Shown here: positions 1,786-21,530 of the stretch, in pieces
Layout of the letters: every line of letters begins with the position of its first letter
Position numbering within the stretch: position 1 is the first letter of the stretch
Virus record (IMG/VR): IMGVR_UViG_2645727604_000006
Origin: a virus
Lineage: Duplodnaviria; Heunggongvirae; Uroviricota; Caudoviricetes
Strand: one strand, 5' to 3'
Length of the DNA stretch: 46,540 bases
Notes under the pieces: model-generated
The model's input: the letters and a program-made list of their open reading frames with translations, nothing else
The model's database searches: none
Told to the model about the DNA's origin: nothing
Position numbers and translations under genes: made by a program

Positions 1786-1795
1786 GGAGTAAAAC

Positions 1796-2704: not shown

Positions 2705-2707
2705 TGC

Positions 2708-3040: not shown

Positions 3041-3043
3041 CCC

Positions 3044-3475
3044 ATGTCTTACGCCACACCGGAACAGTTCATCAGGGCGTTCAGTGAACGCGAGGCGTGC
3101 ACACTGACGGATGAAGAGATGACCGGGCTTATCAACGAGGAAAAGCTGGCCTCCGCGCTTGCGCGTGCCAGTGCCCAGATTGATGGCTATCTGGTGGGGC
3201 GTTACCGGACCCCGTGGCCTGACAGCCCGGGGATTCTGGTGGGTTACTGCTGCGATATCGCCCGTTATCACCTGGCGACCGATTACCGTATCTGCTCAGA
3301 AGAAATTCAGATGCGCTACCGGGACGCCATCCGCTTTCTGGAGAAAGTCGCGGCAGGACAAATCAACCTCGGGCGGGATACGTCCGGCAGCGTGATCCCG
3401 TCATCGTCACAGGTGCGTATCCGCTCCGGCTCCCGTCAGTTCGGGCGTGAGTCCACGCGGGGAGGTGCATTCTGA
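3044..3475 (+). CDS. Mu gp36-like head-tail protein (DUF1320-like)
   Basis: 143-aa ORF, ATG after AAGGAG; synteny with the Mu late region. Confidence 0.5.
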   Translation: MSYATPEQFIRAFSEREACTLTDEEMTGLINEEKLASALARASAQIDGYLVGRYRTPWPDSPGILVGYCCDIARYHLATDYRICSEEIQMRYRDAIRFLEKVAAGQINLGRDTSGSVIPSSSQVRIRSGSRQFGRESTRGGAF

Positions 3476-3528
3476 TTACTGAAATTGAACGGGCGCTGGT
3501 TGAACGTCTGCGTTGTGGTCTGGGGAAA

Positions 3529-4110
3529 ATGGTGCGGGAAGTCCGCACCTATGCAGGTGAACTGGATGAAGACCCGGGCCGGATTGTTCGCAGCCTTCCG
3601 GCAGTCTGGGTGACGTTCGGCGGCATCGCGAAAACCGAACGCTATTCCACGTCACGCCGGAAATACATTGCCACCGGACGCTTTGTGGTTGTGGTGGGTG
3701 ATTACAACACCCGCAGCGAACAAAGCGCCAGACAGGGAGGCACCGTCCGGGATGAGGTCGGTACAAACCTGCTGGTTGAATCCGTCCGTCGCCTGCTGAC
3801 CGGTCAGGATTTGGGGCTGGAGATTGATTATTTCGAACCCGGGCGTGTCAGGACGCTGTTTAACACCGGCGTGGCAGAGCGGGCAATGTCCGTGTTTGCC
3901 TGTGAGTTTGATACCCGCTGGGTGGAGCACGCGCTGGAGAACGGCAAATGGCCGGAGCGCGGTGCAGAAGCGGATATGGCTTTCAACCGTTACCACGGCC
4001 GTCTGTCAGACCCCGACCCGGATTTACTGCGAATTGGTACGCAATACGGCGCAGATATCTGTGGTCTGGATGAATTAAGAGAGCAACAGCATGAACAAAA
4101 TGAAGGTTAA
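3529..4110 (+). CDS. Mu gp37-like protein (DUF1834-like); true start probably upstream
   Basis: The reading frame stays open back to 3469 and encodes ITEIERALVERLRCGLGKMVRE, which looks protein-like. GGAGGTG sits at 3461-3467, so a non-ATG start (CTG 3472 or ATT 3475) overlapping the upstream stop is possible. The first ATG/GTG is at 3529. Confidence 0.5.
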   Translation: MVREVRTYAGELDEDPGRIVRSLPAVWVTFGGIAKTERYSTSRRKYIATGRFVVVVGDYNTRSEQSARQGGTVRDEVGTNLLVESVRRLLTGQDLGLEIDYFEPGRVRTLFNTGVAERAMSVFACEFDTRWVEHALENGKWPERGAEADMAFNRYHGRLSDPDPDLLRIGTQYGADICGLDELREQQHEQNEG

Positions 4111-4324
4111 GGCGGCTCCCGGGATGAAGTTCCCGATGGAGGATAACGCCCGGAAATACATCACCACGGAAGCGGTGATCGTTGAAAACACCGCTTATTA
4201 CCGGCGCGCTGTTCAGGATGGTGACCTGATTCTGGTGGCTGAAGAGCCTGAAACGGCAGAACAGGACACCGGACCAGAAAAAGCGAAGGCGAAGAAAGAG
4301 AAACAGGTGAGCTCCGATGAGTGA
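4091..4324 (+). CDS. small Mu gp38-like protein, lysine-rich acidic C-terminus
   Basis: 77-aa ORF overlapping the sheath gene start by 8 nt (translational coupling). Confidence 0.4.
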   Translation: MNKMKVKAAPGMKFPMEDNARKYITTEAVIVENTAYYRRAVQDGDLILVAEEPETAEQDTGPEKAKAKKEKQVSSDE

Positions 4325-5738
4325 AATTCAGTTTGACACCATTTCGGGCAGTATCCGTAAGCCCGGTGTGCATTTTGAGTTCAATACCCGGCTGGCCGTT
4401 AACACGTTGCCGGGTAACGAACAGCGTGTTCTGGTGATTGGTCCGATGCTGCCTGATGGCACCGCCACCCCCCTGAATGCGGTTTCCGTGTATTCCGAAG
4501 ACGAAGCGGATTTGTATTTCGGGGCCGGTTCACTGGCCGCAGCAATGGCGCGCGCGGCCATTAACGCCAACAGCTATCTGCAACTGGATGTTATCGGTAT
4601 TGCAGACGGTGGTGCAGGAAAAGCGGCAACAGGCGCAGTTAAAGTCACCGGCACTGCAACCAGCAGCGGTACGCTGTCGGTATGGATTGCTGGCGAGCAG
4701 ATCGCCATTAATGTGGACGTCGGGGATGAACCGTCGAAAATCATTCCGGCACTGGTGACGGCAATGACGCAGACGCCATCGCTTCTGGTCACGGGGGAAT
4801 ACAAATCTGACACCTCTCAACTGACAGTGACCGCCCGGACCAAAGGTACCTGGGGGAATGATATCACCCTGTCGGTATCCACCACTGCAACCGGCCTTGT
4901 AGTGGCTACCACGCCGATGGCGAGCGGCGAAATGGACCCGGATATTCAGCCCGCACTTGATGCGGTCTTTGCTGCCGGTCACAACATTCTGATTTGTCCG
5001 TTCAGTACCACGCCAGCCCTTGCCGCCCTGAAGCAGCACCTGGAGAAAACCGGGAACGCGATGGAACAGCGTGGCGCGATTGGTTGTGCGGGCTGGACAG
5101 GTAGTCTGGGAAACGGGATCACCCTGGCAGCCGGTGTGAACAGCGGGCGCGTGTCTGTCCCCTGGTATCGTGGTTCTGTGATGCTTCCTGCTGTGCTGGC
5201 CGCCATCTACGGCGCAGTAATGGCGAGCGAAGAAGACCCGGCACGCCCGCTGAACTCGCTGGCGCTGTCCGGGCTGGATGTGGTCGCCATGTCACAGCGC
5301 GAAAGCCGTAACGAGCAGGAAAGCGCCCTGCATAACGGCCTGACACCGGTTGAGGTTGGACCGGGTAATACGGTGCAGATTGTGCGTGCGGTCAGTACCT
5401 ACACGGTGAACGCTCAGGGTGTGGCTGATGTCTCGTTACTGGATATCACGTCCATCAGAACACTGGACTACACCCGTAAGGCGTGCCGCGAACGTATCAG
5501 CCTTCGCTTCCCGCGTGAAAAACTCAGCACCCGAACCATCGCAAAAGTGGAAAGCGAACTGTATGACGTGCTGCTCAAGCTGGAGGAGTCTGAAATTCTG
5601 GAGAATGTGGAAGCGAATAAGGCAAAACTGCGCGTTCAGCGAAACGGGAAAGATGCAAATCGCCTGGACTGCGCGATCCCTGCCGACGTGGTTAACGGCC
5701 TGCATGTGTTTGCCGGTCGCATCGACATGATTTTGTAA
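4317..5738 (+). CDS. tail sheath protein (Mu gpL-like)
   Basis: 473-aa ORF, the right size and position for a contractile-tail sheath, directly followed by the tube gene. Confidence 0.75.
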   Translation: MSEIQFDTISGSIRKPGVHFEFNTRLAVNTLPGNEQRVLVIGPMLPDGTATPLNAVSVYSEDEADLYFGAGSLAAAMARAAINANSYLQLDVIGIADGGAGKAATGAVKVTGTATSSGTLSVWIAGEQIAINVDVGDEPSKIIPALVTAMTQTPSLLVTGEYKSDTSQLTVTARTKGTWGNDITLSVSTTATGLVVATTPMASGEMDPDIQPALDAVFAAGHNILICPFSTTPALAALKQHLEKTGNAMEQRGAIGCAGWTGSLGNGITLAAGVNSGRVSVPWYRGSVMLPAVLAAIYGAVMASEEDPARPLNSLALSGLDVVAMSQRESRNEQESALHNGLTPVEVGPGNTVQIVRAVSTYTVNAQGVADVSLLDITSIRTLDYTRKACRERISLRFPREKLSTRTIAKVESELYDVLLKLEESEILENVEANKAKLRVQRNGKDANRLDCAIPADVVNGLHVFAGRIDMIL

Positions 5739-5750
5739 GGAGCCTGATAA

Positions 5751-6125
5751 ATGTCCCTGAAAGAATATATCGGCTCGATTGTGTTGGAAATTGACAGCCA
5801 GGAAATCGAGATCACCGACCTTGATGTTCAGATCAACACCGGGCGAAAGCTGGTCAAGACCATGAACAAAAGCGGCAGGGCTAAAGGCTTTGCCCGTGGC
5901 ATTGCCACCTACGAACTGTCCGTTTCGGCGGTTATTCCTGATACCAACGAGCCGGACTGGGAAAATCTGGAAGGTGTGAAAATCTCGCTGTACCCGCTCA
6001 GTAACAGCGGCAAACGCACCTCTTATCTGGACTGCTTCACAACCGAAGTGGGTGAGAAATACACCGTCGATAATGAAGCGAAAATTGATATCAAAATGGC
6101 TGCACTCAGGAAGGTGGAAGGATGA
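5751..6125 (+). CDS. tail tube protein (Mu gpM-like)
   Basis: 124-aa ORF after the sheath gene, with AAGGAG upstream. Confidence 0.7.
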   Translation: MSLKEYIGSIVLEIDSQEIEITDLDVQINTGRKLVKTMNKSGRAKGFARGIATYELSVSAVIPDTNEPDWENLEGVKISLYPLSNSGKRTSYLDCFTTEVGEKYTVDNEAKIDIKMAALRKVEG

Positions 6126-6505
6126 CGATTATCGCTACACAGACCGGCGAACTGTCCGATGGTCTGGTTTTTAACGGCACCATTCATAAAAACTTTGAGC
6201 TGCGTCTGCCGGTCATGCGTGATAACGGGCAGGCACTGGAAGAAACTGAAGAACGCTTTCAGACAGTGGACGGCTTCGCGGCGGATTATTACTACCGCTG
6301 TGCGGTAATGGCGGCAACGCTGGTCCGTCTGGGGGATATTCCGCAGGAAGAACTGACGGCGGAGCTGTTGCACGACAACATGACGCCGGAAGATTTTAAT
6401 ATTCTGCTGGCATCACGCAACGTCCTGAAGGTAAAGCGGAGCGGCGGGAATCCCGGCTCGCCGGACTCCGGCTCGCAGTCCTTATCCTCGGGCGCTACGG
6501 AATAA
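6122..6505 (+). CDS. tail assembly chaperone (Mu gp41/Y-like)
   Basis: 127-aa acidic protein between the tube and tape measure genes, the canonical chaperone position. Confidence 0.55.
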   Translation: MTIIATQTGELSDGLVFNGTIHKNFELRLPVMRDNGQALEETEERFQTVDGFAADYYYRCAVMAATLVRLGDIPQEELTAELLHDNMTPEDFNILLASRNVLKVKRSGGNPGSPDSGSQSLSSGATE

Positions 6506-6678
6506 CCGAAGAACAAATCATGACCATGAGCCGTCCCGAGCTGGACGGCTGGCTTGCCGCCGTTGACAGGCTGAACGGCGGCGGCTCAGGAAGAAAGGAC
6601 ACCTCACAGACCACCCGCCAGTCATTTAAATCCCTCAGAAAGAAACGCAGAAAAGGTAAACAGAAAAATGGCCGGTAA
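6400..6678 (+). other. -1 frame extension ORF downstream of the chaperone gene; candidate programmed-frameshift product
   Basis: The -1 frame is open from 6400 to the TAA at 6676-6678, overlaps the chaperone 3' end by 106 nt, and ends just as the tape measure gene starts (6668). It encodes ...ITEEQIMTMSRPELDGWLAAVDRLNGGGSGRKDTSQTTRQSFKSLRKKRRKGKQKNGR. The slip site is not identified. Confidence 0.35.
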
Positions 6679-8950
6679 TTTCAAAGTTGGCATGACCCTG
6701 ACTGCGAAGGACGAAGCCTCGCAGGTTCTGGAAAAGGGACAAAAACAGGTTATCAAAGCCACCGAAGGTGTAACAAAGGCAACCCGGAAGGCAGGTGCAG
6801 AGCAGACGCGTACCGGGCAGGAAAGCGTTAACAGCACGAAAAAGGCGGCAAAAGAGATACAGCGTGCCGCCCGTGCCCGGGAAACGCTCGGTATTCGTGC
6901 AGAACGCGAGATCCGGCGTGAAATTTATCAGACGGTTGCCAGCTATAACCGTCTGGCCCGCGCCGGTTTTGAATCTGCGCAGGAGCAGGAGCGCGCCATG
7001 CAGGCCACCCGGGAAAAAGCCCGGGCACTCAAGCGTGAACTGGATGGCGTCACTCAGGCTCAGATGAAGATGGCGAAAACGCCTGTTATCCCTGAACGGG
7101 GGCGTTTTGCCCGTGCGGCTGCATTTGGCGGGAATGCCATGACAATAGGCGGCGGAATTATGGCAGGAGCCGCCATTATGACGCAACCAGTCAGAAATCA
7201 AATGAGTTATGAACGTCAGCTCAGCATGATGGCGAACACGGCGTTCAGTGATGGTGGTCTGGAAGGCAGGCAGTTTGGGCGTGAAAAGCTGAAAAACAGT
7301 ATCCGCGCGGCGGTAACGTATGGTGGCGGAACGAAAGAGGATGCAGCTGAAGCAATGAATGAGATGTTGGCCAGCGGCGCTTTTTCCTGGGATACCGCGA
7401 ATAATCTCTTACCGCAGATTATGAAATTTGCTACTGCATCCGGCGCATCTCCACGCGATCTGGTCACTATGGCGGCCAAAGCTAAACAAACATTTGGACT
7501 GACAGATGACGACCTCCCGGCCATGTTTAATATGGCTGTCGCAGCAGGTAAAGCGGGTAATTTTGAGCTACGGGATATGGCGGAATATCTTGGACCTCAG
7601 ATGGCATTAGCTGGTAACGCCGGAATGAAAGGACTGGATGGACTCCAGAAATTACTGGCATTTAATGAGGTCGCAGGGATTGCCGCAGGCAGCAGCAGTG
7701 AAGCAGGTAATAACGTTGTAAACCTGCTGGCCAAACTTTTCAGTAGTGAATCAGCAACAAGGGCGAAAAGCATCACGATTGATGGCAAAGGTATTGATCT
7801 ACCTGGTACGTTGACCCGAGCTATGGAAAACGGCATTGATCCGATAGAAGCATTTTCACGCCTCACTGATAAAGTCACCGCGAACAACAAACAATATCAG
7901 GAGCTTCAGAAGCGTCTGGCAGCAACAAAAGACAAAGGCCAGCAGGACAAAATCCTAGAGTCTATGGCGAAAATTCTTGAGGGGTTCGGTGTTGGTGAGC
8001 TTGTTGGTGATATGCAGGCACTGAAGGCAATCCTGGCTTACAGGAATAACCCGGAATACCGAAAGCAGGTCGAAACTGAAATCAGTCAGCAACGCACCCT
8101 GCCGGAAGGTCAGCGCGCCGGAGATCTGGATTTTAAATTCATGTCAGGTACAAATGATTTTAAAACCGAACAGGCTAAAAACACGCTTGAATTTTCACAA
8201 ATGGACAGCGTGAAAAAGCTGGCGGATGCATCCGGTACTGTGGCCGATGCCATAAGCTGGGCGGGTGAAAAATTTCCGGGGCTGACCACAGCAGTGGTGG
8301 GTGCCACGACCGCAATTGAAGCGATGACCGCAGCGGCTCTGACATGGGCCGGGATCAAAATCCTGACCGGGGGTAAACCCGGTGGCAAGACTGACGAGGT
8401 TGTCGGTGATGTAATTGAAAACACGGTCAAAAAAGGCAAAGGATTTAAATTCCCCGGCATCGCCGGTAGCCTGCTTTCTTTCGGTGGCACCGTTACGGCA
8501 CTGGCCACTGCAACCAGCCCGGAAGAAGACGCCGCCGTCGAAGGAAGCGAGGAGCGCTGGAAAAATATACGGGCTAAATATCCTCAGTGGCTGATTGATG
8601 CTGCCCGTGAAAAATATCAGCCGTGGTGGCAGTTTGGCGAAGGTTACTCAACAGAAAACGAGAAATGGATCCAGCAGTATCTTGACGAACTGAAAAAAAC
8701 CGGGGTTATCGCCGGTGATTCTCTGCCAACACCAGAACAAGTCCGACAGCAAGCCGGAATGGCAGCGTCTGAAACGGCATCAAAGCAACCCGGACGCATC
8801 ACCCAGCCGGAATACCTTACGCACTGGGGGCCACCTGCCAGCCCCATTAATTTCACCACACAACTGGTGCTCGATGGTCAGGTCGTGGCGGAGGCAGTGA
8901 ACAAATACAACCTTCAGGACGGCAACAGAAGCACGGGAGGAACTTACTGA
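6668..8950 (+). CDS. tail tape measure protein (myovirus, Mu-like)
   Basis: 760-aa ORF, alanine/glycine-rich with predicted helical segments, downstream of the chaperone pair. Confidence 0.8.
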   Translation: MAGNFKVGMTLTAKDEASQVLEKGQKQVIKATEGVTKATRKAGAEQTRTGQESVNSTKKAAKEIQRAARARETLGIRAEREIRREIYQTVASYNRLARAGFESAQEQERAMQATREKARALKRELDGVTQAQMKMAKTPVIPERGRFARAAAFGGNAMTIGGGIMAGAAIMTQPVRNQMSYERQLSMMANTAFSDGGLEGRQFGREKLKNSIRAAVTYGGGTKEDAAEAMNEMLASGAFSWDTANNLLPQIMKFATASGASPRDLVTMAAKAKQTFGLTDDDLPAMFNMAVAAGKAGNFELRDMAEYLGPQMALAGNAGMKGLDGLQKLLAFNEVAGIAAGSSSEAGNNVVNLLAKLFSSESATRAKSITIDGKGIDLPGTLTRAMENGIDPIEAFSRLTDKVTANNKQYQELQKRLAATKDKGQQDKILESMAKILEGFGVGELVGDMQALKAILAYRNNPEYRKQVETEISQQRTLPEGQRAGDLDFKFMSGTNDFKTEQAKNTLEFSQMDSVKKLADASGTVADAISWAGEKFPGLTTAVVGATTAIEAMTAAALTWAGIKILTGGKPGGKTDEVVGDVIENTVKKGKGFKFPGIAGSLLSFGGTVTALATATSPEEDAAVEGSEERWKNIRAKYPQWLIDAAREKYQPWWQFGEGYSTENEKWIQQYLDELKKTGVIAGDSLPTPEQVRQQAGMAASETASKQPGRITQPEYLTHWGPPASPINFTTQLVLDGQVVAEAVNKYNLQDGNRSTGGTY

Positions 8951-10299
8951 TGGGCTGGGCTGAAAACCTGCAAAACGCCTCCTTTCGTGGCGTGCAGTTT
9001 GATGTACTGAACACGGATGAACAAATCAGCCGCGACCATGCGGTCTATGAATACCCGTTTGTTGACGGGGCGGATTTGCACGACCTCGGGCGCAAGGCGC
9101 GACCGTTCCGCATGACGGCGTTCCTGTGGGGGGAGTATTACGAATATAAACTCGAAAAGCTGATCGCCGCCCTGGACGAAGGCGGCGATGGTGAGCTGAT
9201 TCACCCGGTTTACGGCTCCGTACCGTCGGTGATTGTGACCGGCTACAGCATTCGCCATGACGCAGAAAGCCCGGACAGCTGCACCATCGACATGAGCTTT
9301 CTGGAGAACCGCACCGGTAGCGCGTTGTTCAGCACCCCGTTACCGGAGCTGTTCGCGCAACAGTTGTTTGATGAACTGGACACTTTACAGGCGCGGTTAA
9401 GTGATTTTTTTGATGCCGTTGCTGCACCTTTAAATACCGTTAACAGCATGATTAAAAAAGCCCAGACAGTGCGTGCCACACTGGTGAATACCCTGCTGTC
9501 TTTCAAAAGTGATTTTGTCTCCACTGTCGATAATATCGTGTCACTGGCAGGCGAACCCGGAAAATTTATCAATGAACTGGCAGAGGTGCTGGAAATCCAC
9601 ACATCAGATGTCGGGCAACCGGTGCCGGTTCTGCAACGTGTTGATTCTGCCACCCGGACCGGGTTGGCAGGAGAGACGACCGTCGCCAGTTCTGCGACAG
9701 TGATGAACTGCTGGAATAAGGTCATCACTGATATGGATGAATTTGTTGCGCTGCCTGTTGCCCTGGTCAGTGGCGATAAAGTACCGGAGGTGGTACTTCC
9801 TGCGGATGCCTCGCCAGACGATGTGCAGGATGTGAAAGCAGTTTACGCAACACAGGCCGCATCTGAACTGGCCAGTGTTGCAATGGCGATACTGGTTGAT
9901 GATGCGCAGTCAGAACAGCTTATACCGGCGGATATCGGGCGACTGGTCGGGGATGTGCGCACCCGCTTACAGGCTGCCATCACGCTGTTCCGTGAACGCT
10001 ATGAAGGCGAACGCGAACGGATAACCGAAACCGCATCACCGCTGGGGCTGATGTACCCGGAAATCATTCAGAGCATGAAAAACGTGGCGGCATCCGTGCA
10101 GGATGTCGGCCTGCTGGTTCTGTCACGCCGCCCACCGCTGACGCAGAAACAGGTGCAGGCGGACAGCTGTCTGCTGTTGCTGGCGTGGCAGTGGTACGGT
10201 GATTACAGTCGTGCGGCAGAACTGCAACGTCTGAACCCGCAGCTGCGTGACCCGAACAACATAACCGCCGGGGTGGTCATTAATGCCTACGCAAAATAA
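8950..10299 (+). CDS. Mu gpN-like DNA circulation protein
   Basis: 449-aa ORF directly after the tape measure gene (ATG overlaps its stop); the N-terminus matches the Mu N family pattern. Confidence 0.65.
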   Translation: MGWAENLQNASFRGVQFDVLNTDEQISRDHAVYEYPFVDGADLHDLGRKARPFRMTAFLWGEYYEYKLEKLIAALDEGGDGELIHPVYGSVPSVIVTGYSIRHDAESPDSCTIDMSFLENRTGSALFSTPLPELFAQQLFDELDTLQARLSDFFDAVAAPLNTVNSMIKKAQTVRATLVNTLLSFKSDFVSTVDNIVSLAGEPGKFINELAEVLEIHTSDVGQPVPVLQRVDSATRTGLAGETTVASSATVMNCWNKVITDMDEFVALPVALVSGDKVPEVVLPADASPDDVQDVKAVYATQAASELASVAMAILVDDAQSEQLIPADIGRLVGDVRTRLQAAITLFRERYEGERERITETASPLGLMYPEIIQSMKNVAASVQDVGLLVLSRRPPLTQKQVQADSCLLLLAWQWYGDYSRAAELQRLNPQLRDPNNITAGVVINAYAK

Positions 10300-11494
10300 C
10301 GAAGACAAAATCAGCCTGGTCATTGCCGGAAGGTCGCATTCTGACTGGAACAGTTATCGTATTGACAGCGATTTCCTGAAAGCTGCCGACGGCTGGCAGC
10401 TTCAGCTGGGGCTGCCTGAAAAGGTGTTCCCGGCGGATATCGTCCGGGGCGCACAAATCCGGTTGCAGGTGGGAGACGAAACGGTGCTCAGTGGGCGCAT
10501 AGACAGCGTGCGCCGCAGTGTATCCCGTCAGAGCTGCACGCTGACCCTGTCCGGGCGTGATGATGCCGCCATCCTGGTGGACTGTGCCGCGCCAGTGTTC
10601 AGCGCCAACCAGCTGACGCTGGACGAGGTCATCGACAGGATTGTCAGACCGCTGGGGATACAGCGCATCCGTATTCAGGCGTCCGGTGTGTCACGTAATG
10701 ACAAAGTCGTTATTGAGCCGGGGATGCGTGCGTGGGATGCACTGGCCAAAGCTGCCGCCGGTCGCGGCTTATGGCCGTGGTTTGAGCCTGACGGGACGCT
10801 GGTTGTGGGTGGCCCTGACTACACCACCACGCCGGTGGATACGCTGATTCTGAAGCTGAACGGCACCGGGAACAACGTGATGGAGCTGGACGATACCCGG
10901 TCCATTAACGGCTGTTTCTCCGAACTTACTGTGCTGGCCCAGAGCCACGCCCGCCGCGCAGACAGCAAGAAACAGGTGGCCGTGGTGCCGCTGGATATCT
11001 GGAACGAGGACGGCAGCGTGCGCACATTGTCCGGGCAGGACAGCGGTAATACGGACAGTGGCCAGACAGGCATTCATAACATGAAAGCCGTTGCCACCGA
11101 CCCCACCGTGGATTATTACCGCCCGCAGATAATCACCCAGGGCGACACCAGCAATCTGGAGCAAGTGAACTGGCGCGCAAAAAAAATGATGAGTGATGCC
11201 CGCCTGTCGGGGCTGGATATCGTCGCGCTGGTTGCAGGTCATCGCACGGCAGATGGTGTTCTGTGGCAGCCCGGCCAGCGGGTGCGGATTGTCAGCGAAC
11301 TCCACGGCATTGATGCCATCTTTTTCCTGATGGGGCGTGAGTTCAGCGGAGGCCGGAACGGGCAGACAACCCGGCTCCGCTTTAAGGAGGACGGCGTGTG
11401 GATACCTGATGCCTTCCCGCGCGAGAAGAAACGCCATCACCGCAGGGGCAAAAAGAAAAAAGAGGTCGCCATTGTTAAGGTCTGGGAGAAATGA
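10283..11494 (+). CDS. baseplate hub / tail protein (Mu gpP-like, P2 gpD-like)
   Basis: 403-aa ORF in the Mu P position. Confidence 0.65.
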   Translation: MPTQNNEDKISLVIAGRSHSDWNSYRIDSDFLKAADGWQLQLGLPEKVFPADIVRGAQIRLQVGDETVLSGRIDSVRRSVSRQSCTLTLSGRDDAAILVDCAAPVFSANQLTLDEVIDRIVRPLGIQRIRIQASGVSRNDKVVIEPGMRAWDALAKAAAGRGLWPWFEPDGTLVVGGPDYTTTPVDTLILKLNGTGNNVMELDDTRSINGCFSELTVLAQSHARRADSKKQVAVVPLDIWNEDGSVRTLSGQDSGNTDSGQTGIHNMKAVATDPTVDYYRPQIITQGDTSNLEQVNWRAKKMMSDARLSGLDIVALVAGHRTADGVLWQPGQRVRIVSELHGIDAIFFLMGREFSGGRNGQTTRLRFKEDGVWIPDAFPREKKRHHRRGKKKKEVAIVKVWEK

Positions 11495-12144
11495 TGTGGG
11501 ACAAAGTTAATCAGCGCGTACAGCAGGCACTGGCCGCCGTTCGCCAGGCATTCAGGGTGGTGACCGGTACGGTGGACAGTTCGACCAAAGTACAGCTGCT
11601 TCAGCTTAACGGGCTGGCAGGCGAACAGCTGGACGGTGCGGAGTATTTTCAGCATTACGGCCTCACCACATCCCCGCCGCCCGGCTCAATGGGTATTGCC
11701 GTTCCGCTGAACGGCAATACCTCCCATACTGTCGTGGTGGCCACAGAGCACGGCGCATATCGTCTGACGGAACTGAAACCCGGGGAAGTGGCCCTGTATA
11801 CCGATGAAGGCGCGAAAATCGTACTGAAGCGCGGACGGGTTATTGAAACCGAATGTGACGTTTATCGCGTGAAATGCAAACGCTACGAGGTTGAGGCAGA
11901 GGAGAACGCCACATTCACGACACCGTTACTGACAGCCAGTGACAGGCTGACGGTGGAAGGCAAAATCACCGGCAACGGTGGCATGGCCATCAGTGGGGGC
12001 AAGGGATACACTGCCACCTTTGAAGGCAATATCAACCATGTGGGTGGAGTGATTACCTCCGTTGACGTCACCATTAATGGCGTTAAAATCGGAACGCACA
12101 AACATCCAACCCCACACGGCATGTCTGACACGCCGGTTAATTAA
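11491..12144 (+). CDS. baseplate assembly/spike protein (Mu gp45-like, P2 gpV-like)
   Basis: 217-aa ORF with a glycine-rich beta region, in the Mu Q position. Confidence 0.6.
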   Translation: MMWDKVNQRVQQALAAVRQAFRVVTGTVDSSTKVQLLQLNGLAGEQLDGAEYFQHYGLTTSPPPGSMGIAVPLNGNTSHTVVVATEHGAYRLTELKPGEVALYTDEGAKIVLKRGRVIETECDVYRVKCKRYEVEAEENATFTTPLLTASDRLTVEGKITGNGGMAISGGKGYTATFEGNINHVGGVITSVDVTINGVKIGTHKHPTPHGMSDTPVN

Positions 12145-12197
12145 GTGCTGAACACCCTCACCTGATTCTGACCTGTCCATGCTGCCAGACTGGCGGC

Positions 12198-12548
12198 ATG
12201 GACCAGACGATTTCACCTGCAACCGGCGACTACGAACGCCGTCGGATTTATACCCTTCATAACGCGGTTTATCTGCGACTGGCGACGCCGCTTGGCAGTT
12301 ACTGGGCGGATGCGTCGCTGGGGTCACGCCTGCACGAGCTGAAGCGGGAAAAAGACGTTTCCCGTGTTCATAAGCTTGCGGCGCAGTATGCCAGCCAGGC
12401 ACTTCAGCCCCTGCTCGATGACGGGCGGGCAAAATCCATTACCGTTGACACAAAACCGGGGCAGCGCGGCTGGTTGTTGCTGTTAATCACCGTCACGGAT
12501 AACGCGGGCACACCGCAGACGTTTGAACACCCTGTGAGGATTATGTAA
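12198..12548 (+). CDS. baseplate protein (Mu gp46-like, P2 gpW-like)
   Basis: 116-aa ORF between the spike and J-like baseplate genes. Confidence 0.55.
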   Translation: MDQTISPATGDYERRRIYTLHNAVYLRLATPLGSYWADASLGSRLHELKREKDVSRVHKLAAQYASQALQPLLDDGRAKSITVDTKPGQRGWLLLLITVTDNAGTPQTFEHPVRIM

Positions 12549-13627
12549 TGCCGTTTCCTGTTCCGGGCGTTGCTGAAAACACAGAACGCCAGCTACGTGA
12601 TATCGCTAACGCCCTGCCGGGCGAAACCATCGACACCGGCGCTGACAGCGATTACCGCATTCGTGCAAATGCCGTATCCGGCGTGGCGGACGGACTGTAT
12701 ATGCATCAGGGGTGGATACTCCGTCAGGTGTTTCCTGATACGGCAGACCCTGAATATCTGGAGTTGCACTGCCGCACGCGCAATGTTTTTCGTAAAAAAG
12801 CAACGGCCTCATCCGGTCCGGCAGTGATTACCGGCACACCCGGTAAAACGCTGCCAGCCGGTGCGGAAATTCGTGGTGAAGGTGTCAGCGTGGCCACCGC
12901 AGCAGACTGCACCGTCGGTGATGAAGGCAGCGCAGAGGTGACGGTAAAAAGCACTGCCACGGGTGCACAGACGAATGCATCCACGACTCAGACGGCAACG
13001 CTGGTCAGCCCACCTGAAGGCATCAACAGCACGGTGACGATTAAATCCCTGACCGGCGGAACGGACAGGGAAAGCGACGCCGACCTGCTGGCGCGTTATC
13101 TGGATATTCTGCGCAGGCCGCCCGCTGGCGGTAATAAATATGATTACAAACGCTGGGCGCTGGAAGTGGATGGCGTTACGTCTGCGTATGTGGAGCCGTT
13201 GCGTCGTGGACTGGGGACGGTTGATGTGGCCATTACGTCAGCCAATGACCTCCCTTCGCAGGAACTGATTAATGCCGTGCTGGCACATATTGAGGAAGTC
13301 CGCCCGGTGACAGCGAAGGACACGATGGTGCTGGCCCCGACGAAAAAAGCCGTTGATTTCGTTGTCCGGGTAAAAACCAGTGGTCTTACTGTTGAACAGA
13401 TAAAACCACAGATAACTGAAGTTATCACGGATTTTATGAACCGGCTGGAGCCGGGGCAGGAATTAATTATTTCACAACTGGAAACTCAGATTTCATTAAT
13501 TTCTGGCGTCAGTGACCGGCGAATTATTATGCCGTCAGATAATGTAAAAGCAGTTGTCAATGAATCCACATGGGAGTGGCTGCGTCCGGGGAGTATTGAT
13601 ATCCAGCCATTTCCCCGGGAGAGTTAA
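12548..13627 (+). CDS. baseplate J-like protein (Mu gp47-like)
   Basis: 359-aa ORF whose ATG overlaps the previous stop; typical baseplate wedge size and position. Confidence 0.7.
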   Translation: MPFPVPGVAENTERQLRDIANALPGETIDTGADSDYRIRANAVSGVADGLYMHQGWILRQVFPDTADPEYLELHCRTRNVFRKKATASSGPAVITGTPGKTLPAGAEIRGEGVSVATAADCTVGDEGSAEVTVKSTATGAQTNASTTQTATLVSPPEGINSTVTIKSLTGGTDRESDADLLARYLDILRRPPAGGNKYDYKRWALEVDGVTSAYVEPLRRGLGTVDVAITSANDLPSQELINAVLAHIEEVRPVTAKDTMVLAPTKKAVDFVVRVKTSGLTVEQIKPQITEVITDFMNRLEPGQELIISQLETQISLISGVSDRRIIMPSDNVKAVVNESTWEWLRPGSIDIQPFPRES

Positions 13628-13630
13628 TAC

Positions 13631-14203
13631 ATGAATACGGTTGATTTATTTCGTGCCATGTTACCACCGGTCAGCTATGACCCGAACGGGAAATATATTT
13701 CAGCAGAACTGAACGCAGAAGCAGCCATTATGGATGAAGTAAAAGCGTCAGCTGCACGAGTGCTTGCATCTGTCACACCATTTTACGCATCCATGACGCT
13801 GTCTGACTGGGAACGAGTGTATGGAGTAATACCCCGCGACGGTGCCACACAGCAGGAACGCCGAGAAAATATTCTTATAAAGATGGCTGCAACTGGTGGG
13901 TTATCTATCCCTTATTTTAAACAACTTGCAGCCAGCCTCGGGTACACCATAACAATTACTGAACTTCATCCATTCAGAGCGGGGATAAACCGATGTGGTG
14001 ATCGTCTCTATATAACAGATGCCCGATGGATTTGGCAGGTTAATGTCACAGGAAGCAGAACGCCAGCCTACAGATTCAGAACCGGAGTATCTGCTGCCGG
14101 GGAGCCGTTACTTTCCTTTGGTGCCCCTGTACTGGAAGAAACATTTAAAGACCTTAAACCCGCTTTTACTTATTGCCATTTCACATATAAGGAGGAGCAG
14201 TAA
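13631..14203 (+). CDS. tail protein (Mu gp48-like, P2 gpI-like)
   Basis: 190-aa ORF between the baseplate J gene and the tail fibre gene. Confidence 0.6.
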
Positions 14204-15027
14204 TGCAAAATCTGATGCCCCCGATAAATACACCGGATCAATTGTTTCATGATGGTGACCCCACTCAGGGGATAGAAGGAACCCTCGTGACTGCTGGTTA
14301 TTTAAACAATCAGCAGGGGGCAACCCGTGATTTACAGCAGGAACTCCTTAATGTTCTTGGTGGTGCACATATTCAACCTGACCCCAAAAAAACGGATCAG
14401 CTACTTACCGCGCTTCGCGCGTTGCTGTTAAGCCGCAAAAATCCGTTTGGCGATATCAAATCGGACGGCACAGTACCAACGGCTCTCGAAAACCTTGGTT
14501 TGGGAGAAGGTGCTCCAGCTATTGGCGTTCCGTTCTTCTGGCCGTCCGCAGCAATGCCAGATACCGTAATCGATAGCTGGTCCAGCATGGTGTTTTTGAA
14601 GTTCAACGGCGCGAAATTCTCTGCCACTGATTACCCTGTGCTGGCGAAAGTGTTTCCGGCGCTGGCATTACCTGACGCACGCGGTGATTTCATTCGTATC
14701 TGGGATGACGGGCGCGGGATTGATGTCGGACGTACCCTACTTTCAGGGCAATCACACACAATTATGGATCATGCACACAATATGGAATTGTGGACGGGGG
14801 ACGGGCTTGCCGCAGGAAGTGCACGGGAAGGAGTAAACCCAGGAATACTGGCTACATATGGTGACGGGGGAATAGTTAAAACGGACGAACCCGGTCTTAA
14901 GGTGCCTTCCTCACTACGAGCTCTTAGCTCTCGTAGTGTTAAACGTTATGGTGAAATTAGTGGACATGTAGGTACAGAAACCCGTCCACGAAATATTGCA
15001 TTTAACTTTCTGGTGAGGGCTAAATAA
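14203..15027 (+). CDS. tail fibre protein: constant N-terminal part fused to the currently expressed variable part
   Basis: 274-aa ORF. The crossover site at 14484-14509 lies inside the gene (about codon 94-102). The C-terminus [16 protein letters not shown] resembles tail-fibre tips. Confidence 0.75.
14484..14509 (+). repeat. left crossover site of the invertible segment (gix/cix/hix-like)
   Basis: TCTCGAAAACCTTGGTTTGGGAGAAG. The core TTGGTTTGGGAGAAG (14495-14509) recurs as its exact reverse complement at 16379-16393. Confidence 0.65.
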
Positions 15028-15620
15028 TGAAACCTGTTTTTGATGAAAATGGGCTGGCTACAGTGCCGGGTGATATGCGTTGTTTTTATTATGATGCAGT
15101 AACGTCTGAATATACGGGCTGGTCTGATGAATATATTAATACTGGCGTAAGTATGCCCGCCTGTTCCACTGGTATTGACCCGGGCGAATACATTCCGGGG
15201 AAAGTGGCAGTATTTACGGGTAAGGGATGGCGCCATGAAGAAGACCACCGCAATGAGACTGTTTACTCAATCGAAAATGGCGCAGCTGTTACAGTGGATT
15301 ATATCGGTGCCATCAAAGACGGTTATGTCACGCTTTCACCGTTAACGCCATACGATAAATGGGATGGTGAGAAATGGGTGACGGATACCGAGGCACAGCA
15401 TAGCGCCGCACTAGACGCGGCAGAAGTAAAGCGCCAGTCGCTGATTGATGCTGCAATGGCTTCCATCAGTCTGATTCAGCTGAAATTACGAGCCGGGCGG
15501 AAGCTGACGCAGGCAGAAACCACCCGACTTAACGCTGTGCTGGATTACATTGACGCGGTGGAGGCAACAGATACCAGCACCGCGCCTGATGTCATCTGGC
15601 CTGAACTGCCGGAGGCGTAG
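15027..15620 (+). CDS. tail fibre assembly chaperone (Tfa, U-like)
   Basis: 197-aa ORF immediately after the fibre gene. Its C-terminus (LDYIDAVEATDTSTAPDVIWPELPEA) is paralogous to that of the minus-strand Tfa. Confidence 0.75.
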   Translation: MKPVFDENGLATVPGDMRCFYYDAVTSEYTGWSDEYINTGVSMPACSTGIDPGEYIPGKVAVFTGKGWRHEEDHRNETVYSIENGAAVTVDYIGAIKDGYVTLSPLTPYDKWDGEKWVTDTEAQHSAALDAAEVKRQSLIDAAMASISLIQLKLRAGRKLTQAETTRLNAVLDYIDAVEATDTSTAPDVIWPELPEA

Positions 15621-16032
15621 GCCATTCAATATCTGGCGCACCGGAAGTATCGACCAGTTCCAGTGCGTCCAGATAATCCAGCCACAAATTATATTGCGCC
15701 AGTTCCTCACCTTTCAGGCGACCAATCGCCGCTTTACCAGGCCATTGCTTACTGTTTATGTATTCGTTGACCTGATTAATCAATTGCTGCTTTTCCAGTT
15801 CGGCTGCGGCAATTTGTTCCTCATGAGTTGGCGGTGGAATATCAATCCATGCAGGCATTCCGTCGATGACACCTCTGTATTTTCCTTCTGGTGCTTCCTT
15901 CATAAATTCGGCGGCAACAGTGTCGTCAATTTCGATTCCATCATCGGGCCATTCACCGGATTCCTGATAAGCGATTTTAAGCTCCACAGGGAAAAACGCA
16001 TTTTTATCGGCACTGAAAATATATTTCTGCAT
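15592..16032 (-). CDS. alternative tail fibre assembly chaperone (U'-like)
   Basis: 146-aa ORF ending LDYLDALELVDTSGAPDIEWPTPPAVQAR, convergent with the + Tfa and overlapping it by 29 bp. Confidence 0.7.
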   Translation of the reverse strand: MQKYIFSADKNAFFPVELKIAYQESGEWPDDGIEIDDTVAAEFMKEAPEGKYRGVIDGMPAWIDIPPPTHEEQIAAAELEKQQLINQVNEYINSKQWPGKAAIGRLKGEELAQYNLWLDYLDALELVDTSGAPDIEWPTPPAVQAR

Positions 16033-16034
16033 TT

Positions 16035-16433
16035 CTACCGTCCTATCGAAATATAACTGAATCTGTATTGCTGTGAGATATCACTGGTTGCCACACGCCA
16101 CGCTGAATTACTGATATGTTCAAAATTTACAGACAAAACCTGCGGGGCAGGATTCGACGGGTCTGACTGAACGGCATCAGACATAACACTGACTGAAACC
16201 ATCGGCTGATTAGGGAATGGTATAGGGAAGTGTCCACTGATAAAGCGGGTCGTGTTTCCTGAAAAAGTGCCAAACTGAACAATATATCCACCTGGTAGCC
16301 TGAACCATCCCGAACCAGAAGCGAATGCTCCCATATCCGGTATCTGATTATCTCCTGTGCCCACATCCCTTTTCGCCGCTTCTCCCAAACCAACGTTTAA
16401 GAAAATGCAGAGATTACGGCTAACTGGCATCAT
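16035..16433 (-). CDS. alternative tail-fibre variable segment (S'-like); silent in this orientation
   Basis: Minus-strand ORF running through the right crossover site. It encodes NVGLGEAAKRD at the site, matching [10 protein letters not shown] in the + fibre gene. No constant N-terminal part is attached in this orientation. Confidence 0.6.
   Translation of the reverse strand: MMPVSRNLCIFLNVGLGEAAKRDVGTGDNQIPDMGAFASGSGWFRLPGGYIVQFGTFSGNTTRFISGHFPIPFPNQPMVSVSVMSDAVQSDPSNPAPQVLSVNFEHISNSAWRVATSDISQQYRFSYISIGR
16379..16405 (+). repeat. right crossover site of the invertible segment, inverted
   Basis: CTTCTCCCAAACCAACGTTTAAGAAAA, whose reverse complement contains TTGGTTTGGGAGAAG. Confidence 0.65.
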
Positions 16434-16460
16434 CTCCGGTTTTTATTCAGGGGGATGCTC

Positions 16461-16556
16461 ATGCTTATTGGCTATGTACGCGCATCAACAAATGACCAGG
16501 ACACCGATTTACAACGCAATGCGTTGAACTGTGCAGGATATGAGCTGATTTTTTGA
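16461..16556 (+). pseudogene. truncated Din-family serine DNA invertase (Gin/Pin/Cin-like); only the first 31 codons remain
   Basis: Encodes MLIGYVRASTNDQDTDLQRNALNCAGYELIF then TGA, which matches the conserved N-terminus of Gin/Pin/Cin invertases (MLIGYVRVSTNDQ...). Similarity stops near codon 31; downstream sequence is unrelated. Confidence 0.75.
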
Positions 16557-16592
16557 GGGTAAATCATCAGCATGAGACTAATAATTTAGCGT

Positions 16593-16652
16593 CCAATTCT
16601 GGGCTTTTTGGTTGCGCTCTCTCCGCCCAGAATTGTGCGCCAATTAGCCCAG
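16593..16652. promoter_or_regulatory. palindromic repeat cluster in the junction region; candidate operator or hairpin
   Basis: CCAATTCTGGGC (16593-16604) with an 11-bp perfect inverted partner GCCCAGAATTG (16625-16635), 20-bp spacer. A third partial copy CCAATTAGCCCAG at 16640-16652. Confidence 0.3.
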
Positions 16653-17253
16653 AAAAAAACGCGAAGTTACAAACCGTTTGTCGCAACAGCTGGTGGTCAG
16701 TGTCGCTGCACACCTGTTGTTACGGCATGAATGCAGATTACCAAATCACCTGGCTGTAAGTAACCACAGAGAACTTTACCTGACTGTGGGGGGCGAGTTG
16801 TGCAGGAACTTAACCGCTGGTTTCGTGACGGAAGAGGACTTTATGTTCATGTTATTCGTTGGGAGCCAGAAACACAGCGCGTTATCTATCTTCGCAAAGA
16901 CTACCCGCATGAGTGCTTTAGTCCTTTGTGGAAATTCAGGCGTGATTTTGTTGAGTGTGAAGGACCACCAGCATATTGATTCTGCAATTCCGGGACGTTA
17001 CACTGTTCAGGCACCTTATAAAGCGGGTGCCGGGATTGGCGTCCTGAAATTGTCAACGGCGATGTATGACGCGCCAGCGTCTTTTTTATCGTCCGCATTT
17101 GCTCACATCCAGATTATGGTGGGCTGGGCGGGGGCACCGAAAGGTGCGCCGGTCTCCGTTGACGCCGGTTACGCCAACCCCGTCCAGTTCACCACCAGTG
17201 AAATTGGCGTTTCCGGTGGTGGAAGTTTTTCACTGTCAACGGAGGCTGCCATC

Positions 17254-17811: not shown

Positions 17812-18032
17812 TCCGGAATATTTTCAAACGGTTTACCAATCAGACTTTCCGTTGTCCTCGTCCGGGTCAGTGGTACACCACACCTGCAGGGCATGTTCTA
17901 CGTGTTAGCCTGGTTGACCGTGAATGTCAGAAGGTGATTTGTGAACCGCTGGGCCGTAATTACCGCGTCAGTATGCCGCTTATAGCCTTTCGCTCCGGAA
18001 AAAACATGAAGCATCTCGGAGGTGCTGCATGA
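17808..18032 (+). CDS. hypothetical small phage protein
   Basis: 74-aa ORF translationally coupled to both neighbours (ATGA overlaps). Confidence 0.35.
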   Translation: MIRNIFKRFTNQTFRCPRPGQWYTTPAGHVLRVSLVDRECQKVICEPLGRNYRVSMPLIAFRSGKNMKHLGGAA

Positions 18033-18847
18033 GTATGGAGCTGATGGTTAAAGCGATGAAAATTCGAGTGGGTAATCCATTGCGAAAACTGGTTCTGATC
18101 AAGCTGGCTGATAATGCCAGCGATCAGGGGGAGTGCTGGCCCAGCTACCAGCATATTGCTGACCAGTGCGAGATTAGCAAACGTTCTGTGATGAATCATA
18201 TTGCGGCCCTTTGTGAGTCCGGGCTGGTAAAAAAAGTCACCCGGAAAGGTGAAAAAGGTAACTCAAGTAATATCTATCTCCTTCATCTGGATGGTGCAGG
18301 AGATTCACTAGGGGGTAGTGCAAATAATTCACTATCTGGCGCAGCAAATTCACCAGGTAGTGCAGGAGTTGCACCAGGGGGTAGTGCAGGAGATTCACCC
18401 AGAACCAGTCACTCTTTTGAACCAGTCAAAGAACCAGTCAATGAACCAATAGCTGTTGGTGCATCAGTTGATGAGTCTGTGCGAGTTCGTTCAAACCGAC
18501 CGGAATACTCTCCGGAGTTTGAGCAGGCATGGCTGGCATATCCCAAACGTGCTGGTGGCAATTCAAAATCTGCAGCCTTCAAAGCCTGGAAAGCCCGTTT
18601 GAATGAGGGGGTAAACCCCGAAACCATGCTGGAAGGTGTGAAACGCTACGCGGGCTGGGTATCTGCGATGGGTAACAGCGGCACACAATTTGTGAAACAG
18701 GCTGTCACGTTCTTTGGTCCGGATCGTCATTTCGAAGAATCCTGGGAAGTTCCTGCGGTATCTGCAGCCAGACGTGAGGACCCGTACTTCAAAGCCAGTT
18801 ACGACAACGTGGACTACAGCCAGATCCCGGCAGGATTCAGGGGGTGA
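18029..18847 (+). CDS. putative replication initiator / winged-helix DNA-binding protein with an internal repeat-encoded linker
   Basis: The N-terminus (LRKLVLIKLADNASDQGECWPSYQHIADQCEISKRSVMNHIAALCESGLVKK) looks like a wHTH. A low-complexity linker is encoded by DNA repeats. The C-terminal domain contains AWLAYPKR. The architecture is analogous to lambda O with ori iterons inside the gene. Confidence 0.45.
   Translation: MSMELMVKAMKIRVGNPLRKLVLIKLADNASDQGECWPSYQHIADQCEISKRSVMNHIAALCESGLVKKVTRKGEKGNSSNIYLLHLDGAGDSLGGSANNSLSGAANSPGSAGVAPGGSAGDSPRTSHSFEPVKEPVNEPIAVGASVDESVRVRSNRPEYSPEFEQAWLAYPKRAGGNSKSAAFKAWKARLNEGVNPETMLEGVKRYAGWVSAMGNSGTQFVKQAVTFFGPDRHFEESWEVPAVSAARREDPYFKASYDNVDYSQIPAGFRG
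18293..18440 (+). repeat. iteron-like direct repeats inside the initiator gene; candidate origin
   Basis: GGTGCAGGAGATTCAC at 18293-18308 and 18383-18398. GTAGTGCA three times. ATTCAC four times. GAACCAGTCA at 18402, 18419 and 18431. Confidence 0.4.
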
Positions 18848-18849
18848 TC

Positions 18850-19338
18850 ATGAGTCTTTTGAATGAAGTTCAGAAATACATTGAAGCCCATCCGGGGTGT
18901 ACTTCCGGAGACATTGCGGATGCTTTTGCAGGTTACTCACGGCAGCGCGTTCTGCAGTATGCAAGCAAGTTACGTCAGAGTGGGCGTGTGGCTCACCGTT
19001 GTGAAGGAGATACACGCAGACATTTCCCGCGCCTGACTGAGAGAGCGCAGGAGCTGGAACCACAACCAGTTCGTGAAACCAGACCTGTGCGCAATTTCTA
19101 TGTCGGCACTAACGACCCGCGGGTGATTTTGTGCCTGACCCGCCAGGCGGAAGAACTGGAGTCAAGGGGCTTATACCGTCGTGCTGCAACCGTGTGGATG
19201 GCGGCATTCCGTGAAAGCCACTCCCAGCCAGAACGAAACAATTTTCTGGCACGTCGTGAGCGGTGCTTACGGAAAAGCAGCAAGCGCGCTGCATCGGGTG
19301 AAGAGTGGTATCTGTCAGGGAATTACGTGGGGGCTTAA
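18850..19338 (+). CDS. PerC-like (Pch-like) transcriptional regulator with an N-terminal wHTH-like region
   Basis: The C-terminal motif ELESRGLYRRAATVWMAAF...RRERCLRK resembles the PerC family signature (ELESKGLWRRAA.RWL) as recalled. AGGGGG precedes the ATG at 18850. Confidence 0.45.
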   Translation: MSLLNEVQKYIEAHPGCTSGDIADAFAGYSRQRVLQYASKLRQSGRVAHRCEGDTRRHFPRLTERAQELEPQPVRETRPVRNFYVGTNDPRVILCLTRQAEELESRGLYRRAATVWMAAFRESHSQPERNNFLARRERCLRKSSKRAASGEEWYLSGNYVGA

Positions 19339-19991
19339 TGAGTAATAAATATTGCCGGGCGCTGGTGGAACTGCGGAACAAACCAGCCCATGAACTGAAG
19401 GAAGTGGGCGATCAGTGGCGCACGCCGGATAACATTTTCTGGGGAATTAACACCCTGTTTGGCCCGTTTGTCCTGGATCTGTTTACTGACGGTGATAACG
19501 CCAAATGTACCGCGTATTACACGGCGGAAGACAACGCGCTGGCGCATGACTGGTCAGAACGTCTTGCGGAGCTTAAAGGTGCTGCCTTTGGTAATCCCCC
19601 ATACAGCCGCGCCAGTCAGCATGAGGGGCAATACATCACCGGCATGCGTTACATCATGAAACATGCCAGTGCCATGCGTGATAAAGGCGGGCGCTATGTT
19701 TTCCTGATCAAAGCTGCCACCTGCGAAGTGTGGTGGCCGGAAGATGCAGATCATATTGCTTTTATTCGCGGGCGTATTGGTTTTGAACTGCCTGCCTGGT
19801 TTATCCCGAAAGATGAGAAGCAGGTGCCGACAGGCGCTTTCTTCGCTGGTGCTATTGCTGTTTTCGACAAGACCTGGAAGGGACCGGCAATCAGCTACAT
19901 CGGGCGCGATGAACTTGAGGCATGTGGTGAGGCGTTTCTGGCGCAGGTTCGCCAGCAGGCAGAAAAACTGGTCAGGGAGATGGCGGCATGA
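19338..19991 (+). CDS. phage N6-adenine DNA methyltransferase (phage Dam-like)
   Basis: Catalytic motif FGNPPY; about 218 aa; nin-region position. The ATG at 19338 overlaps the upstream TAA. Confidence 0.75.
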   Translation: MSNKYCRALVELRNKPAHELKEVGDQWRTPDNIFWGINTLFGPFVLDLFTDGDNAKCTAYYTAEDNALAHDWSERLAELKGAAFGNPPYSRASQHEGQYITGMRYIMKHASAMRDKGGRYVFLIKAATCEVWWPEDADHIAFIRGRIGFELPAWFIPKDEKQVPTGAFFAGAIAVFDKTWKGPAISYIGRDELEACGEAFLAQVRQQAEKLVREMAA

Positions 19992-20700: not shown

Positions 20701-20719
20701 TCAAGAGGAGAAACGAAGT

Positions 20720-21529: not shown

Positions 21530-21530
21530 G

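Follow-up and report, generated by a model that had tools for sequence, protein, structure and literature searches.

Does the gene at positions 18850 to 19338 (+ strand) of IMG/VR virus record IMGVR_UViG_2645727604_000006, a 46,540-nucleotide stretch consisting of prophage DNA only (here called the window), encode a PerC/Pch-like activator of ler, the regulator of the enterocyte effacement locus (LEE), and does it represent virulence-regulatory cargo? A first interpretation made from the letters of the DNA (the sequence-only reading) had proposed both, together with an extra N-terminal winged helix-turn-helix (wHTH)-like region. By sequence comparison, this open reading frame (ORF) is an ortholog of Escherichia coli K-12 yfdN, which belongs to the CPS-53/KpLE1 prophage, and its product carries about half of a PerC domain. 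Taken as a whole, our account, which joins the yfdN identity and the early-operon context with a putative role in modulating silencing or regulator complexes, seems to us slightly better supported than its negation.

The yfdN ORF is intact, running from ATG at 18850 to the TAA stop at 19336 to 19338 with 162 codons in both the ORF list and the sequence itself. The sequence-only reading thus had the coordinates right, and the motifs that it quoted, ELESRGLYRRAATVWMAAF and RRERCLRK, are present at amino acids (aa) 101 to 120 and 135 to 142, respectively. An alternative GTG start at 18844, lying within the Shine-Dalgarno sequence and used by some RefSeq entries, would add two residues; we favor the ATG because homologues down to 25% identity all start at the methionine of MSL... 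in the family alignment. The product is a basic protein of 18.7 kDa with two domains. It matched PHROG 1324 as a full-length family member (E = 2.5e-76 over aa 1 to 161) and shared 99% identity with a RefSeq cluster that comprises 2305 sequences under the name "PerC family transcriptional regulator," the RefSeq YfdN clusters ranging from 94 to 99% identity to the window protein. Matches carried the label "yfdN: PerC family transcriptional regulator" from the Prokaryotic Genome Annotation Pipeline (PGAP) and RefSeq, followed by yfdM (dam). At the nucleotide level, yfdN of K-12 laboratory strains was 96.5% identical to the window gene. The two are the same gene, with a full-length protein match and the same yfdO-yfdN-yfdM(dam) order; the window copy differs by a few substitutions (e.g., Y10 where the family has F) and by a Mu-like prophage that interrupts the Rha/Ash gene about 2.2 kb upstream. 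The gene also corresponds to orf40 of Shigella phage SfV and Sb43 of Salmonella phage ST64B, and it has been termed "the K12 unique PerC homologue" (PMC5931665). Neither the gene nor its PerC-family label is new: RefSeq, PHROGs, and the literature contain both.

Profile searches upheld the PerC-family core that the sequence-only reading had recognized. Pfam PerC (PF06069) matched aa 98 to 149 of YfdN with 36.2 bits (E = 7.4e-09), above the gathering score of 22.6 bits. BLASTP gave 41% identity to aa 7 to 50 of PchA and 37% identity to aa 6 to 51 of PerC. Besides, hhalign of a YfdN-family profile of 25 diverse proteins against a PerC/PchA/D/E profile returned a probability of 98.1% (E = 7.7e-14, 55 columns); PerC was taken from pMAR2 of strain E2348/69, and PchA, PchD, and PchE were taken from O157 Sakai. 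In a five-way alignment with these proteins, A100, L103, E104, G107, R110, R111, A112, W116, R129, R136, and C139 were invariant, and the core signature A..LE..G.(Y/W)RRA..W...R...R..C is therefore present in YfdN. The expected likeness to the Pch proteins held for this core but did not extend to the C-terminal half of PerC/Pch: in the alignment, YfdN lacks the segment N..(D/E)I(K/R).AV....MG. Indeed, YfdN covers only positions 5 to 56 of the 90-position PerC model, whereas PerC, PchA, PchD, and PchE each cover positions 1 to 89 with 124 to 153 bits. YfdN is thus neither a whole PerC domain nor a small single-domain protein of about 90 to 104 aa; it has 162 aa and adds a winged helix and a linker. 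The PHROG database likewise places PerC and Pch in phrog_994 and YfdN in phrog_1324. We conclude that homology links the C-terminal module of YfdN to the N-terminal core of PerC/Pch and, at a greater distance, to ANR proteins, among them Aar.

The architecture of YfdN was further characterized with an AlphaFold2 (AF2) model built with a 21-sequence alignment. The C-terminal module formed three helices (residues 90 to 105, 109 to 122, and 126 to 149) with a predicted local distance difference test (pLDDT) score of about 90, and when modelled alone it reached a pLDDT of 82 and a predicted template modelling (pTM) score of 0.66. The isoelectric point (pI) of the module is 10.2. Foldseek of the isolated module against the PDB found nothing significant, the sole matches, with E above 0.7, being TPR/MIT-like helical bundles, so that no function could be assigned on the basis of fold; these nonsignificant neighbors are protein-binding bundles, and no DNA-binding fold was among them. 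A sequence search of the PDB with YfdN yielded nothing relevant, only chance ClpC N-domain matches at E above 0.2. The C-terminal tail (pLDDT below 50) keeps the motif W-x-L-[SA]-G-x-Y-x-G in homologues at 25 to 30% identity, with G157 and G161 nearly invariant, and it may be a short binding motif. In a MAFFT alignment, the Tyr of this motif aligned with the F-R-x-Y that PerC, PchA, and PchE carry close to their C termini.

At the N terminus, the AF2 model has helices at residues 3 to 13, 19 to 25, and 31 to 44 and a β-hairpin at 47 to 60 (pLDDT 80 to 89), a predicted H1-H2-H3 topology with a hairpin wing. About 60 N-terminal residues of this model superposed on winged helices of ArsR/SmtB, MarR, MepR, DsrD, and Z-alpha in Foldseek, with a root mean square deviation of 1.8 to 3 Å, a probability of 1.00, and E values of 0.02 to 0.09. 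Matches at the sequence level were weak (FaeA, E = 0.099; HTH_24, E = 0.19; PHROG MarR, E = 1e-4), and in the Pfam scan every wHTH model fell below its cutoff on YfdN. The additional wHTH-like region suspected earlier is thus borne out at the level of the predicted fold. The domain is basic (pI 9.6), and its third helix is rich in R, K, and Q. It is joined to the C-terminal module by a linker that is indel-rich and poorly conserved in family alignments, residues 63 to 79 having a pLDDT below 50.

Is yfdN, then, cargo or a resident gene? The stop codon of the upstream initiator gene (TGA, 18845 to 18847) is separated from the yfdN ATG by 2 nucleotides, and the TAA of yfdN shares bases with the start codon of dam (TAATG). 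The genes of this region are, in order, Rha/Ash, a 74-aa ORF, the HTH_36/DnaD_N initiator, yfdN, Dam, a LexA-DNA-binding-domain protein, RusA, KilA-N, DUF968, and Q. A scan of positions 17336 to 21955 found neither a promoter-like site nor, on the + strand, a terminator-like one. yfdN has 54.4% GC, its neighbors have 50 to 56%, and perC has 34.8%. Furthermore, the initiator-yfdN-dam order is kept in phiSTEC1575-Stx2k, STEC309, Salmonella, Hafnia, SfV, and ST64B, and an IMG/VR contig with a 33%-identical YfdN retains the placement after the initiator, the neighboring methylase being of another type. From the tight junctions, the lack of a promoter or terminator of its own, the neighbor-like GC content, and the conserved synteny, it follows that yfdN is a built-in early-right-operon gene of a widespread set of lambdoid prophages and not cargo. 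Embedded as it is in this operon, it does not occupy an accessory ("moron") position, in contrast to pchA, which is placed separately in Sakai Sp4, on the opposite strand and flanked by IS629 and the lysis genes. The SfV record contains depositor-predicted -35/-10 signals for dam inside orf40, of which the -35 differs in the window.

The distribution of the gene was examined by matching its 489 bases to complete E. coli genomes. The yfdN sequence matched 2668 of the 5426 genomes, about half, and ler was found in 697; hence, at least 1971 of the yfdN-positive genomes (74%) lack LEE, and yfdN does not track the presence of this island. The gene also occurs in phages SfII, SfIV, and mEp460, in Shiga toxin (Stx) phages of the Stx2c and Stx2k types, and in some Stx2a phages. 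A search of 1.84 billion representative proteins gave 99 matches, about 30 of which were two-domain proteins of 140 to 165 aa with identities down to 25%, indicating that YfdN is a modest enterobacterial phage family. In a scan of species-representative genomes, yfdN was found only in E. coli and Shigella and in one likely contaminant contig; its taxonomic breadth rests on the RefSeq clusters and on the Salmonella, Hafnia, and phage loci. Searches for related loci that started from individual distant homologues yielded one locus (L011) in one case and none in the other. A natural knockout was also encountered: in the O157:H7 Stx2a prophage Stx2a_WGPS2 (AP012537.1; L019, 2966 to 4767), IS629 splits yfdN in the linker.

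What might such a protein do for the phage? We propose that YfdN would be made together with the other delayed-early proteins upon prophage induction, that the modelled winged helix would tether it to DNA, and that the PerC/ANR module may, by analogy with what has been shown for Pch and Aar, engage host nucleoid-silencing (H-NS/StpA/Hha) or AraC-type regulator complexes. The outcome would be that silencing of phage DNA is relieved or retuned, and effects on host islands such as LEE would be collateral. Activation by Pch has been reported to depend entirely on relief of H-NS/StpA/Hha silencing (PMC4764244). Of the roles considered, that of a DNA-tethered PerC/ANR module acting on nucleoid-silencing or regulator complexes while the phage develops seems the most likely; taken by itself, however, the proposal is tentative, and we consider it somewhat more apt to be wrong than right. 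Several points weigh against it. Fukui et al. could not coprecipitate H-NS with PchA, and the partner of the PerC core itself is therefore uncertain. YfdN is devoid of the C-terminal half of PerC/Pch. In addition, our literature search found no experiment on YfdN itself, K-12 yfdN being listed as uncharacterized, and the only data on the gene are at the level of screens: a glycogen phenotype upon overexpression, induction by nitric oxide in CFT073, and a predicted network labeled "negative regulation of transcription." Finally, the strict pairing of yfdN with a replication initiator fits a role in replication equally well.

A related possibility is that YfdN is an ANR-like negative regulator, whose module would bind an AraC/XylS-type activator and inactivate it or would repress LEE and would thereby dampen host virulence or acid-resistance regulons. 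The NCBIfam model ANR_neg_reg (NF033650) matched aa 96 to 142 of YfdN with 23.8 bits (E = 3e-05) over positions 5 to 51 of 54, which is nearly the full model and a stronger match than that of PerC (18.2 bits). This model was the best sub-threshold NCBIfam match of PerC, PchA, PchD, PchE, and the YfdN family on the same ~45 residues, which suggests that one three-helix module is common to the PerC and ANR families. The positions concerned are 19117 to 19296 in the window and L003 18487 to 18756, L004 23365 to 23679, L012 19877 to 20146, and L013 16772 to 17044 in the comparison loci. Five of the seven residues of the ANR signature (A10, E14, A22, W26, A29, W43, and R47; PMC4983702) are in register in YfdN (A100, E104, A112, W116, and A119), so that YfdN, with 47 of the 54 model positions matched, keeps A-E-A-W-A; the helix-3 positions W43 and R47 are out of register, shifted by one. 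Besides, a PerC-annotated protein encoded by a phage-inducible chromosomal island (PICI), EcCIMP1_025, represses LEE1-lux in Citrobacter rodentium, and its authors, who remarked on the ANR matches of PerC-like PICI proteins, suggested that this LEE1 repressor is ANR-like (PMC11773190). The score of YfdN is nevertheless below the curated family cutoff (23.8 versus 32 bits), and the domain organization is different. ANR proteins such as Aar, Cnr, and Rnr are single-domain proteins under 10 kDa that are encoded near an AraC partner, and they work through protein-protein contacts, their partners being AraC-type regulators and H-NS; Aar, a three-helix protein with no DNA-binding domain, binds AggR and H-NS (PMC5570504, PMC4983702). 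YfdN is about twice that size limit at 18.7 kDa, and no AraC-family gene lies beside yfdN in the examined modules. We therefore regard the negative-regulator explanation as unlikely.

Alternatively, YfdN may be a replication accessory of the yfdO-like initiator, occupying the position of lambda P and serving in origin recognition or replisome recruitment. The gene always directly follows the HTH_36 initiator with close or overlapping junctions, even in the 33%-identical relative with a different methylase type, and the module contains no separate helicase or loader gene. Phages with this module are of the "Eru" type (Eru6/7-like), the replication of which appears uncharacterized (PMC8951638). 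Similarly, pchE in the satellite-like element Sakai Sp7 (L013, 13600 to 17044) stands in line, directly after the genes for a primase and a single-stranded DNA-binding protein, and not in a moron position. The initiator, however, which matched PHROG 270 ("replication initiation protein") with E = 1.7e-88, already appears to bring its own loading function: its aa 145 to 249 matched PHROG 1701 ("DnaD-like helicase loader") with E = 8e-33, and no extra loader would therefore be needed. As a whole, this protein couples an O-like wHTH (HTH_36/DnaD_N) to a C-terminal half that resembles the PHROG families "DnaD-like helicase loader" and "primosomal protein." YfdN itself has no ATPase or known replisome-binding motif, and the homologues that could be detected are all modulators of transcription or of the nucleoid. 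A replication role thus seems quite unlikely.

The idea that the locus first suggested, that YfdN is a Pch-like activator of ler/LEE1 and a cargo gene raising type III secretion in an attaching-effacing host, fared worse. The core that YfdN shares with PerC of the enteropathogenic E. coli plasmid pEAF and PchA/B/C of enterohemorrhagic E. coli prophages is genuine, with about 45 to 55 homologous residues, a basic charge in common, and the invariant pattern A..LE..G.YRRA..W...R...R..C found in the activators PerC and PchA. The pI of the module also resembles those of PerC (9.8) and PchA (10.3) and not those of the nonactivators PchD (8.5) and PchE (5.7). Furthermore, yfdN-bearing phages occur in O157 and other E. 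coli that produce Shiga toxin (STEC), and one group deleted yfdN as a precaution from a K-12 ler::lacZ reporter strain (PMC5931665). PerC and Pch, however, are single-domain proteins of 89 to 104 aa that match the whole 90-position model with 143 to 149 bits and keep the conserved C-terminal half, whereas YfdN reaches 36 bits over part of the model and has an added N-terminal winged helix.

Even a full-length domain would say little about activation. In a ler::lacZ reporter, PchA, PchB, and PchC increased expression 4-fold or more, PchE less than 2-fold, and PchD not at all (PMC5931665). The PerC-like genes of EcCIEDL933 and EcCICFT073 were without effect in Porter et al. 2005 (per PMC11773190), and EcCIMP1_025 acts as a repressor, as mentioned above. 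Membership in the PerC family does not predict ler activation, since published members activate, do nothing, or repress. PchD, PchE, and the PICI PerC-like proteins stand in line with replication genes as YfdN does and do not activate LEE, having no effect or repressing it, although they differ from YfdN in being full-length single-domain proteins (124 to 153 bits) with no winged helix. Our literature search found no published test of YfdN on the LEE1/ler promoter. Conservation of yfdN in Salmonella, Shigella, and Hafnia phages, the scarcity of ler among yfdN-positive genomes, the operon placement so different from that of pchA, and the IS629-disrupted copy in an O157 Stx2a prophage all argue against a LEE-activating role. 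Thus, the claim of virulence-regulatory cargo finds no support in the half PerC domain, the built-in placement, the distribution, or the behavior of the family, and a LEE-activating YfdN is in our opinion very unlikely.

An exclusion or immunity function like that of lambda Ren, to which the N-terminal domain might be related, is hardly credible: Ren likewise follows replication genes, the place of yfdN corresponds to that held by ren in Sakai Sp4 and Sp8, aa 3 to 67 of YfdN matched PHROG 142 ("Ren-like exclusion protein") with E = 0.0015, and residues 1 to 58 of YfdN and Ren aligned in register in hhalign, but the hhalign probability was only 18%, and the resemblance may be just a shared generic winged-helix fold.

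Table 1. Coordinates of yfdN, its parts, and adjoining features in the window
Feature	Position	Strand	Basis or remark
Right-hand part of Mu-like prophage	1..16671	+	97.3% identity to E2348/69 Mu-like prophage; ends ...GTTACA
yfdO-like replication initiator, upstream operon partner	18029..18847	+	Pfam HTH_36 and DnaD_N; PHROG 270, PHROG 1701
GGGGG Shine-Dalgarno sequence	18840..18844	+	5 nt before yfdN ATG; overlaps 3' end of upstream gene; read from sequence
yfdN coding sequence	18850..19338	+	162 aa and TAA; ORF list, sequence, PHROG 1324, RefSeq, PGAP name
N-terminal winged-helix domain (predicted), aa 1-62	18850..19035	+	AF2 topology, Foldseek, pI 9.6
Variable linker, aa 63-89	19036..19116	+	Predicted disordered
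Three-helix PerC/ANR-type module, aa 90-149	19117..19296	+	Pfam PerC aa 98-149, hhalign, AF2
C-terminal tail, aa 150-162	19297..19335	+	Motif W-x-L-[SA]-G-x-Y-x-G; predicted disordered
Phage Dam methyltransferase (yfdM-like), downstream operon partner	19338..19991	+	Pfam Dam, E = 1.1e-44

The copy in the window has a peculiarity of its own. A Mu-like segment carrying tail sheath, tape measure, DNA circularization, and baseplate genes precedes the lambdoid part, and comparison with the intact phage phiSTEC1575-Stx2k places its right end about 7 codons into the Rha/Ash gene (junction 16671/16672). The window does not include the lambdoid cI/cro/pR region, which lies on the far side of the Mu-like element; the insertion therefore cuts the yfdO-yfdN-dam operon off from its native promoter pR. 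Because the Mu-like prophage separates the operon from pR, this copy of yfdN is probably not expressed in the normal way. No genome in the complete E. coli genome collection holds the whole mosaic of the window; the best matches by part were E2348/69 for the first 16.6 kb, STEC309-type phages for the early region, and chicken and pig isolates for the late region. A reading of the window as an Stx-converting phage was rejected, as it contains no stx2 sequence.

Other genes in the window were noted in passing. A short ORF at 16462 to 16557 (+), encoding MLIGYVRASTNDQDTDLQRNALNCAGYELIF followed by a stop, resembles the N terminus of a Gin/Hin-type serine invertase, cut short close to the right end of the Mu-like prophage. 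A 350-aa N6/N4 DNA methylase is encoded at 24061 to 25113 (+), downstream of the Q antiterminator, at the site where Stx phages of similar type carry tRNAs and stx. The protein encoded at 19988 to 20314 (+) has 108 aa and only a LexA DNA-binding domain (LexA_DNA_bind, E = 2.9e-19), with no S24 peptidase domain; it is conserved in the yfdN phage module of E. coli, Hafnia, and SfV and could be a noncleavable LexA mimic or competitor. PADLOC defense models gave no meaningful match.

As found, the gene matters little, and yfdN is unusable as a virulence marker. LEE activation cannot be read off the label "PerC family transcriptional regulator" when a prophage gene bears it, and caution is the more appropriate here in that the YfdN subtype has half a PerC domain and the window copy is cut off from its promoter. 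Beyond this, we venture, as a doubtful but conceivable extension, that YfdN-type proteins may be a class of their own, with the three-helix PerC/ANR module fused to a DNA-targeting winged helix for local anti-silencing (anti-H-NS) in lytic development, the free-standing PerC/Pch and ANR proteins being derived from an ancestral phage early-gene module. If YfdN is indeed a DNA-tethered anti-silencer, a function would be given to a gene that about half of E. coli genomes carry, and the PerC/Pch and ANR virulence regulators would be linked to a phage origin.

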